Below are positions 5,072 through 16,361 of a stretch of DNA of 40,697 nt, in pieces. Below the pieces are notes generated by a model. That model searched no databases. It was not told the origin of the DNA and worked only from the letters and a program-made list of their open reading frames with translations. Each line of letters starts with the position of its first letter. The first letter of the stretch is position 1. Source of the DNA: a virus (taxonomy: Duplodnaviria > Heunggongvirae > Uroviricota > Caudoviricetes). The stretch lies in the IMG/VR virus record IMGVR_UViG_2541047891_000003. One strand, 5' to 3'. A program made the position numbers and the translations under genes.

Positions 5072-5129
5072 AAAAAGGGCGGCAGAGCAGTCACGGAGTA
5101 AAACTGATACCGCCAAACGTCACCAGAAA
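5072..5129 (-). ncRNA. dicF: DicF small regulatory RNA (ftsZ-targeting sRNA)
   Basis: Minus-strand sequence TTTCTGGTGACGTTTGGCGGTATCAGTTTTACTCCGTGACTGCTCTGCCGCCCTTTTT matches the DicF sequence I recall; ends in a GC stem plus T-run; about 170 nt upstream of dicB as in Qin. Confidence 0.85.
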
Positions 5130-6059: not shown

Positions 6060-6278
6060 TTAACGTGGGTATGTAATCATTCTGGCAATGCTTAATGCCG
6101 CTGCTTTTTGCAGCCTGGTGATATCCTGCTCCAGAGCGGACAGATTTTCAGTCTGCTTAGCCCTGGCTTCATTGGCCCATTTCAGATCCTGCGCTGCATT
6201 AATTTTCTGGCGCATCCACTCATAAAGTTCATCATCGGTATAGTCTGGCGCGATGATGACGGGTTCTCGTTTCTGCAT
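6060..6278 (-). CDS. ydfC: YdfC-like small protein
   Basis: 72-aa ORF in the position and size of Qin ydfC, directly downstream of ydfB. Confidence 0.6.
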   Translation of the reverse strand: MQKREPVIIAPDYTDDELYEWMRQKINAAQDLKWANEARAKQTENLSALEQDITRLQKAAALSIARMITYPR

Positions 6279-6307: not shown

Positions 6308-6436
6308 TCAGCCGTTAGATTTTGCCGAACTGGAAAGCGCCTGTTTAAACTCACTGAAGCTGAGAGCTTCTTCGCCTTCGGCAAGGCCTTCGAAGTATTC
6401 TTCGTAAGCCTTTTCCATGATTGCGTCGAAATCCAT
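6308..6436 (-). CDS. ydfB: YdfB-like small protein (42 aa)
   Basis: Hand-translated MDFDAIMEKAYEEYFEGLAEGEEALSFSEFKQALSSSAKSNG; not in the ORF track because it is under 60 aa; start 1 nt after the ydfA stop. Confidence 0.6.
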   Translation of the reverse strand: MDFDAIMEKAYEEYFEGLAEGEEALSFSEFKQALSSSAKSNG

Positions 6437-6437
6437 A

Positions 6438-6593
6438 TCACTCACCTGAATTTCTTTCCAGCCAGCGACGCGCGCCAGATTCGGTTTTAAACGTTTTGCT
6501 TTTGGTATACGTCATCGCGGTGAACGTACCGTCCTGGTTTGGGAACACGCCGTATACCAGAGATTCGTTGTTGCCAAGATCGATAGTATCCAT
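6438..6593 (-). CDS. ydfA: YdfA-like small protein (51 aa)
   Basis: Hand-translated MDTIDLGNNESLVYGVFPNQDGTFTAMTYTKSKTFKTESGARRWLERNSGE; length and sequence consistent with Qin YdfA from memory; not in the ORF track. Confidence 0.65.
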   Translation of the reverse strand: MDTIDLGNNESLVYGVFPNQDGTFTAMTYTKSKTFKTESGARRWLERNSGE

Positions 6594-6761
6594 GTTGACC
6601 TCATTTCCCCTTAACGCCGGGGTAGCGGAACTAAGACCTGTCGCACCGTTGTGCTTTGATGGAATACATTGTTCTCTCTAGGTGAACAAAAGTCAACATA
6701 ATGAATACATAAAAGGTAAAAAAAACCGCCTTGCGGCGGTATGATTCTGTAAAATAAAGAA

Positions 6762-7151
6762 TTATTTTTGTCGTGTTATTGGGTCGACGTATTCTGAGTA
6801 AAATTCGGTCAGTTTTTGAAGTCGCATTTGAAAAGCTGCCAGCATATTTCTACGTTCTACGGGTGGCAGGTTTCTGTAAACATCAAGCAGGGCCTTCTCG
6901 TCATCATCAAGCGCTTCTCTATTTGTCTCTTCTTTCCCTGTCAGTAGCCAAGAAAGGGAAACGTTTGTGGCTTCTGCAATTTTGGCTGCGGAATCTTTAC
7001 TGATTGTTCCTCTTTTTTTCCATGCGTTGACTGATGAACGACCTACACCAGCGATACGCGCTAAATCTGAACCACTTAAATGATGCTGTTGAGAGATCGC
7101 ATCTAACCTTTCTGCTAGCGGGGTGTCGTATTGCTTTTTTCTCATGTCCAT
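6762..7151 (-). CDS. Prophage repressor, HTH (XRE/CI-like) DNA-binding protein, functional analogue of DicA/CI
   Basis: 129-aa ORF with an HTH-like segment LSGSDLARIAGVGRSSVNAWKKRG; divergent from a Cro-like gene across an operator-rich intergenic region. Confidence 0.75.
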   Translation of the reverse strand: MDMRKKQYDTPLAERLDAISQQHHLSGSDLARIAGVGRSSVNAWKKRGTISKDSAAKIAEATNVSLSWLLTGKEETNREALDDDEKALLDVYRNLPPVERRNMLAAFQMRLQKLTEFYSEYVDPITRQK

Positions 7152-7166
7152 TTAGCAATTATAACC

Positions 7167-7250
7167 GTTCAGTGAACACTAACAATTCCTCGAGGTGTTG
7201 ACTTATGTTCGTTTTAAGTGAACAATTGTTGTGGTTAGTTGAACTGGAGG
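7167..7250. promoter_or_regulatory. Immunity-region operator/promoter cluster (palindrome GTTCAGTGAAC, repeated GTGAAC/GTTGAAC half-sites, -35-like TTGACT)
   Basis: Palindrome at 7167-7177; related half-sites at 7216-7244; TTGACT at 7198-7203; lies between the divergent repressor and cro-like genes. Confidence 0.5.
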
Positions 7251-7254
7251 TTGT

Positions 7255-7530
7255 ATGACAGCATTGGACAAAGCAATAAAGATTGCTGGTGGTATTCGTC
7301 CGCTAGGGCGTGCAATAGGGGCTTGGCCATCTCAAATACACAAATGGGCAAATGAATACAATGGTCGAGTTCCGACGGGGGAACGGGTTCGTCAAATTTA
7401 TATTGCAACTGGGGTTACTCCTCATGAATTGCGACCAGATTTATACCCGAATCCAACTGACGGGTTGCCTGCTGGAGATAAGGCTAACACACCAAATACA
7501 CCGGAGTTGATTCATGAAAATCAAGCATGA
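7255..7530 (+). CDS. Cro/DicC/YdaS-like HTH regulator
   Basis: 91-aa ORF MTALDKAIKIAGGIRPLGRAIGAW...ELRPDLYPNP; divergent from the repressor; resembles YdaS-type Cro analogues. Confidence 0.65.
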   Translation: MTALDKAIKIAGGIRPLGRAIGAWPSQIHKWANEYNGRVPTGERVRQIYIATGVTPHELRPDLYPNPTDGLPAGDKANTPNTPELIHENQA

Positions 7531-7939
7531 ACACATCCGTATGGCGATGAATGCCTGGGCGCATCCGGACGGTGAAAAAGTTCCGGCAGCTGAAATAACC
7601 CGGGCTTATTTTGAGCTGGGTATGACGTTCCCGGAGCTATATGACGACAGCCATCCGGAAGCGCTGGCTCGTAATACCCAGAAAATTTTCCGTTGGCTGG
7701 ATAAAGACACCCCTGATGCGGTTAAAAAAATTCAGGCGTTGTTACCAGCGATCGAAAAAGCAATGCCACCTTTGCTGGTGGCCCGAATGCGCAGCCACAG
7801 TTCAGCCTATTTTCGGGAACTGGTGGAGACGCGGGAACGACTGGTGAGAGACGCTGATGATTTTGTCGCAGTGGCGATCGCTGGTTTCAACCAGATGAAT
7901 CGTGGTGGCCCGGCGGGAAATATTGTGGTTGTGCATTGA
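7514..7939 (+). CDS. YdaT-like protein (CII-like regulator family)
   Basis: 141-aa ORF starting MKIKHEHI as I recall YdaT does; overlaps the end of the cro-like gene. Confidence 0.6.
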   Translation: MKIKHEHIRMAMNAWAHPDGEKVPAAEITRAYFELGMTFPELYDDSHPEALARNTQKIFRWLDKDTPDAVKKIQALLPAIEKAMPPLLVARMRSHSSAYFRELVETRERLVRDADDFVAVAIAGFNQMNRGGPAGNIVVVH

Positions 7940-8010
7940 CTGACAATATTCATACCGGATCGCTTCCGGCAATTCGTGAGTAAAAAGATTCGCTATCAGA
8001 AGAGGTGAGT

Positions 8011-9081
8011 ATGGCTAACGCCTGGCTCAGATTATGGCATGACATGCCAAATGACCCTAAGTGGCGAACAATTGCCAGGGTGTCAGGGCAGCCAATTGCA
8101 ACAGTGATGGCAGTGTATATCCACCTCCTGGTGAGCGCGTCACGAAATGTCACGCGAGGTCACATTGATGTCACGACAGAAGATTTGGCAAGTGCGCTCG
8201 ACGTGACAGAAGAGGTAATTGATTCAATTTTGCAGACGATGCAGGGGCGGGTACTTGATGGTGATTTAATCACTGGATGGGAAAAACGCCAGGTGCTGAA
8301 AGAGGACAACGGCAATATTTCGCAAACCGCAAAATCTCCTGCAGAGCGCAAGAGGGCGCAGCGAGAGAGGGAAAGAAAGCGGGAACAAAATGGAGATTGT
8401 CACGGCGCGTCACGAAATGTCACGCACATGTCACGACGAGTCACGACAGATAAAGATACAGATAAAGATACAGATCAAGAAGATCAAAACACTATGGTCC
8501 ATGGCGTAAAAAACGCCACGAACCAGGCAGGGGATGTTCAGACCGTCAATCCTGGTCAGCCAGCAGGCACGACACCGGAAGCCGATTCAGCGTATGCGCT
8601 GAAAGCCGATTCGGGCGCTGTGCAGCAGGTGATGACCGCAAGGCCGGAGCAATCACACCAACTGCAGCAGCCTGAAGCCGATTCCGCCATTCAGCGGGAA
8701 GCCGATCGGGTAGTCCCGGAAAACACCGGGCAGCCTGTGGGACGAGTGGATTATCCGGATGTGTTCGAACAGGTCTGGCGGGAATACCCGTTGCGTGCCG
8801 GGGCAAACCCGAAGAAATCCGCTTTCAGTGCCTGGAAGGCCAGATTACGCGAGGGGGTGTCACCAGAGGCCATGCTGGATGGCGTGAGGCGTTACGCAAG
8901 ATACCTTGCGGCTACCGGGAAAACGGGAACGGAATTTGTTCAGCGAGCGACGACGTTTTTTGGACCGGACCGGAATTTTGAAAACCCCTGGCTGCTCCCG
9001 GTAAGCGGCACGAACAACCAGCGTTGTGTGAATCATATTTCTGAACCGGATACCGAAATTCCGCTGGGCTTCAGGGGGTAA
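8011..9081 (+). CDS. Replication initiator / replisome organiser (O-like, YdaU-type N-terminal domain)
   Basis: ATG at 8011 with RBS AGAGGTGA upstream; N-terminal replisome-organiser-like region; iteron repeats embedded in the coding sequence. Confidence 0.65.
   Translation: MANAWLRLWHDMPNDPKWRTIARVSGQPIATVMAVYIHLLVSASRNVTRGHIDVTTEDLASALDVTEEVIDSILQTMQGRVLDGDLITGWEKRQVLKEDNGNISQTAKSPAERKRAQRERERKREQNGDCHGASRNVTHMSRRVTTDKDTDKDTDQEDQNTMVHGVKNATNQAGDVQTVNPGQPAGTTPEADSAYALKADSGAVQQVMTARPEQSHQLQQPEADSAIQREADRVVPENTGQPVGRVDYPDVFEQVWREYPLRAGANPKKSAFSAWKARLREGVSPEAMLDGVRRYARYLAATGKTGTEFVQRATTFFGPDRNFENPWLLPVSGTNNQRCVNHISEPDTEIPLGFRG
8137..8480. repeat. Iteron array (GTCACG-containing direct repeats) plus GATAAAGATACA tandem repeat; candidate replication origin inside the initiator gene
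   Basis: 19-mer GCGTCACGAAATGTCACGC at 8137-8155 and 8407-8425; TCACGACAGA at 8171-8180 and 8441-8450; GATAAAGATACA x2 at 8450-8473. Confidence 0.6.
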
Positions 9082-11468: not shown

Positions 11469-11679
11469 TTTTATACCTTTTGTGTTGTGTGAAGGAGCAG
11501 TATAGTCAGAAATGAGACAAGTGAAAGGGGATAGAAAGTAATAGTTTGTTTTTGTAGAATTGCTGCGGGTGCTTGAGGCTATCTGCCTCGGGCATGAACA
11601 CCAACGGCAGATAGAGAAAAGCCCCAGTTAACATTACGCGTCCGGCAAGACGCTTAACATTAATCTGAGGCATATCTGT

Positions 11680-11880
11680 ATGCGACACATAAAGATTAGC
11701 CTCTTAACAGTAAGAAATCAACTAACAGGGGGCTGTAATGCGAAGGAGCTATGTGTTTTGTCTGGTGGTGGTTTGCATCACCATTCTGATATTTGTCGGG
11801 ATGGTTCGCGGTTCGCTATGCGAGCTGCACATCAGGCAGGGAAACACAGAGCTTTCAGCGTATTTAGCCTACGAAGTTGA
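11680..11880 (+). CDS. mok: mok-like overlapping reading frame of a hok-family locus
   Basis: 66-codon ORF starting upstream of, and overlapping in another frame, the hok-like toxin ORF, as in hok/mok/sok loci. Confidence 0.4.
   Translation: MRHIKISLLTVRNQLTGGCNAKELCVLSGGGLHHHSDICRDGSRFAMRAAHQAGKHRAFSVFSLRS
11693..11721 (-). promoter_or_regulatory. sok: Candidate promoter for a Sok-like antisense RNA (minus strand: -35 TTGATT, 17-bp spacer, -10 TAATCT)
   Basis: Promoter-like hexamers on the minus strand positioned so the transcript would be complementary to the mok start region. Confidence 0.35.
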
Positions 11881-16051: not shown

Positions 16052-16127
16052 GGCCCTTTAGCTCAGTGGTGAGAGCGAGCGACTCATAATCGCCAGGTCG
16101 CTGGTTCAAATCCAGCAAGGGCCACCA
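16052..16127 (+). tRNA. ileZ: tRNA-Ile2 (anticodon CAU, lysidine type; could alternatively be tRNA-Met)
   Basis: Cloverleaf with acceptor GGCCCTT/AAGGGCC, anticodon loop CTCATAA, T-loop TTCAAAT, CCA end; close to E. coli ileX as I recall it. Confidence 0.8.
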
Positions 16128-16128
16128 A

Positions 16129-16205
16129 CCGCCACTAGCTCATCAGGAAAGAGCGTCAACCCTTTAAGTTGAGAGTGCGAGGTTCGAGTCCCCGGTGGCG
16201 GTCCA
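16129..16205 (+). tRNA. tRNA with atypical anticodon loop CCTTTAA (anticodon UUU = Lys if canonical; C at position 33)
   Basis: Acceptor CCGCCAC/GTGGCGG, D-arm GCTC..GAGC, anticodon stem TCAAC/GTTGA, T-loop TTCGAGT, CCA end; identity uncertain. Confidence 0.6.
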
Positions 16206-16207
16206 GT

Positions 16208-16283
<76 letters not shown>

Positions 16284-16286
16284 TAT

Positions 16287-16361
<75 letters not shown>

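Follow-up and report, generated by a model that had tools for sequence, protein, structure and literature searches.

The window analysed here, i.e. the whole stretch of 40,697 nucleotides of DNA, contained at positions 6762-7939 three intact genes in a divergent arrangement. A 129-aa repressor with an HTH was encoded on the minus strand (6762-7151), and 103 bp separated its ATG from a Cro-like gene (7255-7530; 91 aa) on the plus strand, which overlapped by 17 nt with ydaT (7514-7939, plus strand; 141 aa). Downstream of ydaT, a replication initiation protein belonging to phrog_3729 in PHROGs was encoded at 8005-9081. The divergent repressor/cro pair and the overlapping 141-aa YdaT-like gene had both been proposed in a first-pass annotation of this DNA and both were borne out, the ORFs being found at these coordinates with families scoring above the curated Pfam cut-offs, including a PF06254 match for the YdaT-like protein. 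Long ORFs filled the window, from a 372-aa ORF at 545-1663 to the right-hand end, and the order of the flanking genes agreed with that of Qin and Rac.

The repressor matched Phage_CI_repr in Pfam with 48 bits (cut-off 22), as well as HTH_3, and was classified as a transcriptional regulator/repressor in PHROGs. Its N-terminal HTH was followed by a C-terminal helical region bearing the motif LLxxYxxLPxxER, which is common to the C-termini of DicA, PaaR2 and RacR. Pfam gave HTH families only, with no S24 peptidase domain in the 129 aa, and the protein, unlike lambda CI, is devoid of the domain for RecA-stimulated self-cleavage. The likeness to DicA/DicC evoked by the first-pass annotation held for the layout but not for the proteins: against the DicA NCBIfam model NF007257, the repressor aligned over profile positions 6-127 of 135 and reached only 37.2 bits (cut-off 101), and BLAST of the repressor and Cro-like proteins against DicC, PaaR2 and the YdaS of CP-933P revealed no similarity. 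The repressor is, on the evidence of its sequence, a CI analogue and, because of this low score in the DicA model, not a DicA orthologue. Kinship with the Rac proteins was confirmed, although at low identity: YdaT aligned over its full length with 33% identity (E 7e-14) and YdaS with just 32% over 60 aa, whereas RacR aligned over a 33-aa HTH stretch only, the similarity of the repressor and Cro-like proteins to RacR and YdaS being short and of HTH level.

The cro-like gene is the first of a rightward operon divergent from the repressor gene, lies 3' of a PR-like promoter and is preceded by the Shine-Dalgarno sequence GGAGG (7246-7250). Its product matched YdaS_toxin (PF15943; 39 bits, cut-off 30) over profile positions 1-63 of 65, the transcriptional repressor family phrog_35 (E 5.8e-25) and, in the PDB, the Cro proteins 5w8y and 3bd1. 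Operator binding and PRM repression are known only for the YdaS of CP-933P (PMC8630535).

Promoters, terminator and predicted operators

Promoter and terminator scans located promoters resembling PRM, PR and PL, together with an intrinsic terminator, exactly at the positions predicted by the lambda model. The best promoter match of the region (10/12) was the PRM-like promoter on the minus strand (7158-7185), composed of TTGTTA (7185-7180), a 16-nt spacer and TATAAT (7163-7158), and all 12 of its hexamer positions were invariant among 10 relatives. Its -10 is separated from the repressor ATG (7151) by 6 nt, a distance from which a leaderless repressor mRNA is predicted. The PRM of CP-933P has an identical geometry of -10, 6 nt and ATG, and its transcription start, determined by 5'RACE, is the A of the ATG (PMC8630535). 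By analogy, we infer that the repressor transcript of the window is leaderless too, a trait that would be shared with lambda. The intrinsic terminator (6716-6740, minus strand), located 21 nt 3' of the repressor stop codon, consists of ACCGCCGCAAGGCGGT followed by a T-run, and only 2 of the 16 positions of its stem-loop varied among the relatives, both of them in the loop. The repressor would probably be translated from a leaderless PRM-like transcript ending at 6716-6740.

On the plus strand, the PR-like promoter (7198-7226) combined TTGACT and AACAAT with a 17-nt spacer, and identical hexamers, again 17 nt apart, formed the PL-like promoter on the minus strand (6668-6696; TTGACT at 6696-6691 and AACAAT at 6673-6668). 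In each of them a single hexamer position out of 12 varied among the 10 relatives, and the change in the PL-like promoter, from TTGACT to TTGACA, went towards the consensus. Transcription of the cro-like gene, ydaT and the replication genes would start at the PR-like promoter, and that of the ydfA/ydfB/ydfC-like genes, DicF and the dicB region at the PL-like one.

Within the spacer and -10 of both promoters lay a perfect copy of the inverted repeat TGTTC-N9-GAACA, namely the predicted OL-like operator TGTTCTCTCTAGGTGAACA (6670-6688) in the PL-like promoter and the predicted OR1-like operator TGTTCGTTTTAAGTGAACA (7206-7224) in the PR-like promoter. These were the only two perfect copies in the window, against 0.07 expected, and the pattern occurred twice or more in none of 100 shuffles. 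The arms of the OL-like site were invariant among the 10 relatives and 5 of its 9 spacer positions were variable; when both sites were pooled, variation affected 1 of 20 arm positions versus 9 of 18 spacer positions (Fisher p = 0.0025). A PRM-proximal block (7166-7184), also a predicted operator, included the palindrome GTTCAGTGAAC (7167-7177), which sits between the two hexamers of the PRM-like promoter, and the degenerate site CGTTC-N9-TAACA. This palindrome had been singled out in the first-pass annotation and proved to be real and above chance, GTTCANTGAAC occurring just once in the 40.7 kb against 0.02 expected. The stretch 7155-7187 was wholly invariant among the 10 relatives, 12 of the 16 positions of 7168-7183 matched IR1 of CP-933P, and Klebsiella phage Kp4882-1 carries a 5-1-5 palindrome of different sequence in the same place. 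The GTGAAC repeats described together with the palindrome stood as three copies in two short regulatory regions (6682, 7172 and 7218), but the bare hexamer was not enriched over the whole window (26 observed, 20 expected), significance being reached by the longer patterns only.

The geometry of the operators was ambiguous, since 5-N9-5 and 5-N1-5 palindromes were present along with direct TnAGTGAACA repeats. A weak candidate for a third site, TGTTGTGGTTAGTTGAACT (7227-7245), showed two mismatches to the operator pattern and was considered doubtful and then rejected, 10 of its 19 positions being variable among the relatives. The palindrome CCTCGAGG (7188-7195), between the -35 hexamers of PRM and PR, was not conserved in the relatives, and a 1-bp deletion in L001 breaks the palindrome AACAATTGTT at 7221-7230; both were discarded.

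We consider it very likely that this region serves a lambdoid prophage of E. coli, of the Rac/Qin/CP-933P type, as its immunity (lysis-lysogeny) switch. In the putative assignment of proteins to sites that we favour, the repressor would bind TGTTC-N9-GAACA over the spacers and -10s of the PR-like (7206-7224) and PL-like (6670-6688) promoters, silencing the operons cro-ydaT-replication and ydfABC-DicF-dicB alike. Expressed from the PR-like promoter, the Cro-like protein would bind to this operator region as well, including the invariant GTTCAGTGAAC block, and its binding within the PRM-like promoter would turn repressor synthesis off. The canonical LexA box CTGT-N8-ACAG had no match in the window, which therefore offers no evidence of an SOS-controlled antirepressor, and no obvious antirepressor was found.

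Since its characterised relatives Rac, Qin and CP-933P are all cryptic prophages, the module could instead be the decaying remnant of one, with a switch no longer in control of a lytic programme; the closest copy in a complete genome, that of strain ETEC1731 (99% identical), has a frameshifted integrase. However, the three genes of the window are intact, and its long ORFs have counterparts annotated in ETEC1731 as integrase, exonuclease, terminase, portal, capsid and tail-completion proteins. Moreover, operator arms and promoter hexamers are conserved, and the repressor and Cro-like proteins remained nearly invariant at ~10-18% DNA divergence. For the repressor, 17% of the DNA columns varied among the 10 relatives though the protein hardly changed, and an O157:H7 prophage copy retained 98% identity. 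Judged from this pattern of substitutions, both proteins are under strong purifying selection. CP-933P, although cryptic, has retained a functional, bistable switch (PMC8630535). We thus rate decay as improbable and retain a working immunity switch as the preferred reading.

YdaT and its box

YdaT matched PF06254 (YdaT_toxin) with 42.2 bits (cut-off 21) and the family phrog_163, 'CII-like transcriptional activator' (E 3.7e-46). Over 140-141 aa it was 95.7% identical to PDB entry 3c4r and 85.7% identical to the YdaT of CP-933P (8bt1), and it comprised a POU-like HTH and a C-terminal tetramerisation helix. The recognition-helix segment ARNTQKIFRW was identical to that of 8bt1 and included R60, the recognition-helix arginine in CP-933P, to which R57 corresponds in Rac (PMC9986795; PMC11879457).

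The YdaT box (OM), TTGATTCATGAAAATCAA, extends across the ydaT ATG at 7514 (7507-7524) and is the sole exact copy of TTGATT-N6-AATCAA in the window. It is identical to the footprinted site of CP-933P (PMC9986795) and one base off the Rac YdaT-box ATGATTCATGAAAATCAA, proven by mutagenesis (PMC11879457), which we located in K-12 at L002:3178. Immediately to its left, the ydaT Shine-Dalgarno sequence GGAG (7503-7506, plus strand) coincides with the left boundary of the ydaT module, a mosaic joint: DNA homology to CP-933P extended from 7503 to 7935 with 83.6% identity, and the DNA to the left of 7503 was unrelated.

In Rac, mutation of the box abolished a 29-fold activation of the reverse racR promoter (PMC11879457). 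In CP-933P, YdaT switched on PRE933P and was non-toxic, and PaaR2 and YdaS repressed PR, PRM and PL (PMC8630535). In both prophages a leftward repressor promoter is thus activated by YdaT and its box, comparable to lambda CII at PRE, and the studies on them describe regulation of the Cro/CII type rather than a bona fide toxin-antitoxin pair (PMC8630535, PMC9986795, PMC11879457). The role of YdaS/YdaT, which the first-pass annotation had left open, can hardly be regarded as such when near-identical YdaT proteins have been characterised, the exact box is present and the function published is of the Cro/CII type. By analogy with these proteins, YdaT of the window is a CII-like regulator and not a toxin.

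The names given by Pfam (YdaS_toxin, YdaT_toxin) and RefSeq ('toxin YdaT family protein') would rather suggest a type II toxin-antitoxin pair made up of the cro-like gene and ydaT, in which YdaS would be the antitoxin to a toxic YdaT or the roles would be exchanged, and three reports describe the expression of Rac YdaS or YdaT as toxic (PMC5700373, PMC5700377, PMC11879457). The Rac genes are reported to be toxic on derepression. Nevertheless, the toxicity in Rac is explained by the action of a transcription factor at the host rcsA promoter (PMC11879457), the CP-933P protein acts as a transcription factor without being toxic (PMC8630535), and YdaT is a tetrameric POU-like HTH protein with a defined DNA box (PMC9986795). 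The genomic context argues in the same direction. In the L004 prophage, a 141-aa YdaT just one residue off 8bt1 comes after an unrelated P22_Cro-family gene, with an S24-type CI alongside, and in the window the homology boundary at 7503 parts ydaT from its upstream gene; this P22_Cro-family neighbour and the 7503 joint indicate that the two genes are not inherited as a pair. A toxin-antitoxin pair is consequently extremely improbable.

As a CII-like regulator, the YdaT tetramer would bind TTGATTCATGAAAATCAA at the start codon of its own gene and turn on a PRE-like promoter that points leftward and depends on an activator; the transcript from this promoter would read back via cro into the repressor gene and favour the establishment or maintenance of lysogeny. 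A relaxed scan for such a reverse promoter within the cro-like gene, in which at least 8 of 12 matches were demanded, gave none. Activator-dependent promoters usually fit the consensus poorly. The position of the box over the ydaT ATG, right after the Shine-Dalgarno sequence and inside the PR-like transcription unit, would also suit a YdaT that does not activate repressor synthesis and acts mainly as a repressor, roadblock or autoregulator at its own RBS/start codon, or that mainly regulates genes of the host. The failure to find a consensus reverse promoter, the designation of YdaT as the equivalent of a 'CII repressor' in the 2023 paper and the binding of Rac YdaT to the host rcsA promoter all speak for this possibility. 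However, binding to the box left Rac ydaT expression unchanged while racR expression rose steeply, the CP-933P PRE reporter was switched on by YdaT, and a poor consensus match is the normal condition of an activator-dependent promoter. A YdaT that does not activate the repressor gene is therefore unlikely, and activation of a PRE-like promoter remains our preferred reading.

A candidate for an OOP-like antisense RNA was also considered and rejected as a probable chance occurrence. It comprised a promoter-like site on the minus strand (7946-7919) and a terminator-like hairpin (7782-7765), and the RNA predicted from them, ~155 nt in length, would be antisense to ydaT in its 3' half. In CP-933P, L001 and L004 its -10 had become AATGCT and its -35 was lost, while the stem had gained a C-A mismatch and the T-run was shorter.

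Relation to known immunity regions

A close counterpart is the immunity region of CP-933P, or Sp12, of E. coli O157:H7 (Jurenas 2021, Prolic-Kalinsek 2023), where paaR2-paaA2-parE2 face ydaS-ydaT. Both loci have a short S24-less repressor, an operator region of ~100 bp, a Cro analogue and then YdaT, and they share the YdaT box and ydaT start region, a PR -35 of TTGACT and a PL-like promoter whose hexamers repeat those of PR. Unlike CP-933P, in which the operator half-sites are GTTTAGTAA, the window has TGTTC/GAACA half-sites and GTTCAGTGAAC; it is without the paaA2-parE2 cargo, the terminator following directly 3' of the repressor gene, and its cro-like gene ends in a different frame, 17 nt inside ydaT. 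P0107, the protein closest to 8bt1, belonged to a different prophage, in which an S24-type CI was accompanied by a gene of the P22_Cro family, which is evidence of mosaicism.

With Rac of K-12, the window shares the three-gene layout, its neighbours (a DUF1391 gene on the left-hand side, replication genes on the other) and, but for one base, the YdaT box at the start codon of ydaT; the Rac ydaS and ydaT genes, however, do not overlap and are separated by a 22-nt gap. In Qin, too, the repressor faces a Cro-like gene followed by a YdaT-type gene, and the leftward order ydfA (DUF1391), ydfB, ydfC, DicF and dicB is the same; there, however, the YdaT-type gene is the N-terminal remnant YdfX (36% identity to the window YdaT over 94 aligned positions), whereas ydaT of the window is intact. 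The logic and gene order are those of lambda, with divergent PRM/PR sharing operators, a distant OL/PL and an activator gene in the position of CII followed by replication genes. The operators depart from those of lambda in number and geometry, and YdaT, with its POU-like HTH and 222-symmetric tetramer, is structurally unrelated to CII and binds an inverted repeat rather than direct TTGC repeats (PMC9986795).

The repressor/Cro pair represents an immunity specificity not previously characterised, present in 82 out of 5,426 complete E. coli genomes, and the order repressor, Cro, CII-position gene and replication gene also occurred in the phage records SEN34, PHB10 and Kp4882-1. With its clean and conserved operator predictions, this pair could provide another orthogonal switch and possibly a test case for the induction of S24-less repressors. 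The locus is otherwise an ordinary lambdoid immunity region, whose most debated part, YdaT, has already been solved, in structure and in function, in near-identical proteins. The ydaT start and box were shared with 3,116 of the 5,426 genomes, and both here and there the labels 'toxin YdaT family protein' and 'YdaS_toxin' are misleading.

The 37-nt junction formed by the box and the ydaT start was found in up to 6 copies per E. coli genome, and among the heteroimmune prophages compared (window, CP-933P and Rac) the box differed by one base at most. This shared box, the recognition-helix identity with CP-933P and the multi-copy junction make it conceivable, as a tentative idea, that the YdaT of one prophage could activate repressor synthesis in every co-resident YdaT-type prophage, in which case the maintenance of lysogeny would be coupled across otherwise independent immunity systems.

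Composition of the repressor/Cro/YdaT switch

The three open reading frames that the first-pass annotation had proposed as an immunity switch were found at matching coordinates, and all of them scored above the curated Pfam cut-offs. The repressor gene (6762-7151, minus strand, 129 aa) matched Phage_CI_repr and HTH_3, the Cro-like gene (7255-7530, plus strand, 91 aa) matched YdaS_toxin (39 bits; cut-off, 30) and ydaT (7514-7939, plus strand, 141 aa), which overlaps the 3' end of the Cro-like gene by 17 nt, matched YdaT_toxin (42.2 bits; cut-off, 21). PHROGs classified the three products as a transcriptional regulator/repressor, a transcriptional repressor (phrog_35) and a 'CII-like transcriptional activator' (phrog_163, E 3.7e-46), respectively, and the product of the following gene (8005-9081) as a replication initiation protein. 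Among ten aligned relatives, the repressor and the Cro-like protein were nearly invariant despite 17-20% of variable DNA columns.

Layout and neighbouring genes are as in the Rac and Qin prophages. The window repressor reached only 37 bits on the model of DicA, the Qin repressor (cut-off, 101), and is not a DicA orthologue. Its C-terminal motif LLxx(F/Y)xxLPxxE(Q/R) is common to DicA, to PaaR2 of CP-933P and to RacR of Rac, and a Pfam search detected no S24 domain in it. To the left of the repressor lie DUF1391/ydfA-like, ydfB-like and ydfC-like ORFs (6438-6593, 6308-6445 and 6060-6278, minus strand), followed by the DicF sRNA gene (5077-5128, minus strand, 76.7 bits), an order shared with the dicB operon of Qin.

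Predicted promoters and operators of the immunity region

A promoter scan revealed three candidate promoters and a terminator. The PRM-like promoter (7185 to 7158, minus strand; TTGTTA, 16 nt, TATAAT) agrees with the consensus at 10 of 12 positions. The PR-like promoter (7198 to 7226, plus strand) reads TTGACT, 17 nt, AACAAT, and both of its hexamers recur in the PL-like promoter (6696 to 6668, minus strand); DicF lies in the leftward operon downstream of the latter. An intrinsic terminator (6740-6725, minus strand) directly follows the repressor stop codon. The PRM-like -10 hexamer is separated by 6 nt from the repressor ATG; since this geometry equals that of CP-933P, where a leaderless mRNA was proven by 5'RACE and N-terminal sequencing (Jurenas et al., PMC8630535), the repressor mRNA of the window is probably leaderless as well, with M1 (7151) as its start. 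RefSeq places the repressor start (7143-7151, minus strand) inconsistently across genomes, at M1 (390 nt) or M3 (384 nt); a leaderless M1 start is favoured by the PRM geometry and by a single synonymous change in codon 2.

The palindrome noticed in the first pass, GTTCAGTGAAC (7167-7177), is indeed present and occurs once in the window, against 0.02 copies expected. The motif TGTTC-N9-GAACA has exactly two perfect copies (0.07 expected). One (7206-7224) overlaps the spacer and -10 hexamer of the PR-like promoter, and the other (6670-6688) has the same relative position in the PL-like promoter. In an alignment of ten relatives (82-99% identity over the aligned segment), the arms of both operators pooled varied at 1 of 20 positions versus 9 of 18 for the spacers (Fisher p = 0.0025), and the stretch 7155-7187, comprising the PRM hexamers and the palindrome, showed no variation. 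A putative third operator (7227-7245) was poorly kept among these relatives and was discarded. In the Klebsiella phage Kp4882-1, the same place beside the PRM -10 is occupied by AGCCACTGGCT, a palindrome that has the 5-1-5 shape of the window palindrome and a different sequence, and the repressor recognition helix starts with SPTSVTNW instead of the GRSSVNAW of the window. These differences fit a role of the palindrome as a specificity-determining operator.

In the mechanism that we propose, occupancy of OR and OL by the repressor would keep the PR-like and PL-like promoters silent. The Cro-like protein would act at the same operator region to switch off the PRM-like promoter, and YdaT, bound to its box, would activate a putative leftward PRE-like promoter feeding the repressor gene. 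No reverse promoter was detected inside the Cro-like gene by a relaxed scan, a result to be expected if the PRE-like promoter depends on an activator. The 40.7-kb window contains no canonical LexA box.

YdaT and its box

The window YdaT is 95.7% identical to PDB 3c4r, a structural-genomics entry from a prophage of E. coli O6. Its identity to the CP-933P YdaT (8bt1) is 85.7%, and the two do not differ in the recognition-helix segment ARNTQKIFRW with its conserved R60. The CP-933P protein is a tetramer with a POU-like HTH domain, and the DNA that it protects where ydaS meets ydaT is the inverted repeat TTGATT-N6-AATCAA (Prolic-Kalinsek et al., PMC9986795). The only exact match to this box in the 40.7 kb, TTGATTCATGAAAATCAA (7507-7524), lies across the ydaT ATG. 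CP-933P YdaT activates PRE933P and is non-toxic, and PaaR2 and YdaS repress PR, PRM and PL (PMC8630535). Rac YdaT, only 33% identical to that of the window, binds ATGATTCATGAAAATCAA at the corresponding place (Wons et al., PMC11879457), a site that we found in the K-12 sequence as published; with the box mutated, a reverse promoter that lies within ydaS and increases racR expression loses its 29-fold activation (PMC11879457). The question of the YdaS/YdaT role, which the first-pass annotation had considered open, has therefore already been answered experimentally for near-identical proteins. The observation of a switch was confirmed; the interpretation given in the first pass is partly supported.

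On the minus strand at 7755-7946, a terminator-like hairpin and a promoter-like sequence (TTGTCA, 16 nt, AATATT) would yield a ~155-nt RNA running antisense to ydaT over its 3' half and recalling lambda OOP. Because both elements lack conservation in other ydaT alleles, this candidate was rejected as probably a chance occurrence.

Mosaicism and distribution of the ydaT module

The immunity region of CP-933P, located with the sequence of a primer listed in the supplement of Jurenas et al., is the closest known system. It shares the YdaT module and the promoter geometry with the window, whereas the CI/Cro cassette of the window is unrelated and the paaA2-parE2 cargo is missing from it. DNA homology starts at 7503 (GGAGTTGATTCATG...) and continues through ydaT with 83.6% identity; left of this joint the two DNAs are unrelated, and BLASTP gave no match of the window repressor and Cro-like protein to PaaR2 or CP-933P YdaS. 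In locus L004 (4023-5426 of another E. coli contig), a YdaT one residue away from 8bt1, with ATGATTCATGAAAATCAA as its box, lies behind an S24-peptidase CI and a P22_Cro-family gene. Homologues of the window repressor/Cro pair (40-60% identity) are encoded in the phage records SEN34, PHB10 and Kp4882-1, where they are combined with differing genes at the CII position. By these sequence comparisons, ydaT and its box are a module recombining freely with different CI/Cro cassettes, which is expected of a CII analogue but not of a toxin belonging to a cognate toxin-antitoxin pair.

Of 5,426 complete E. coli genomes, 3,116 contain the 37-nt junction of box and ydaT start (7503-7539), and a single genome can carry as many as six copies. 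This leaves room for cross-talk through YdaT between heteroimmune prophages of the same host; that a shared box actually leads them to cross-activate repressor synthesis is a tentative and rather doubtful proposition. The immunity-specific part (6640-7260) was present in 82 of the 5,426 genomes, as a single chromosomal copy in each.

Kp4882-1 (GenBank UNVERIFIED; reverse-complement 1498-2673) has the layout of the window; its repressor is 60% and its Cro-like gene 56% identical to the window counterparts, and the third gene encodes a Rac-like YdaT. The O157:H7 copy (~90% DNA identity; repressor 98.4% and Cro-like protein 98.9% identical) adjoins ompW. Positions 6600-8100 are 99.2% identical to a prophage of E. 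coli ETEC1731, integrated beside a tRNA-Ser gene and carrying lambdoid early, Q, lysis and HK97-type head genes. In the ETEC1731 copy, the place matching 11567-11740 (plus strand) is annotated as a Hok/Gef CDS, and the counterparts of four tandem tRNA genes that lie downstream of the Q antiterminator region in the window (16052-16358, plus strand) are annotated as Ile, Lys, Thr and Gly.
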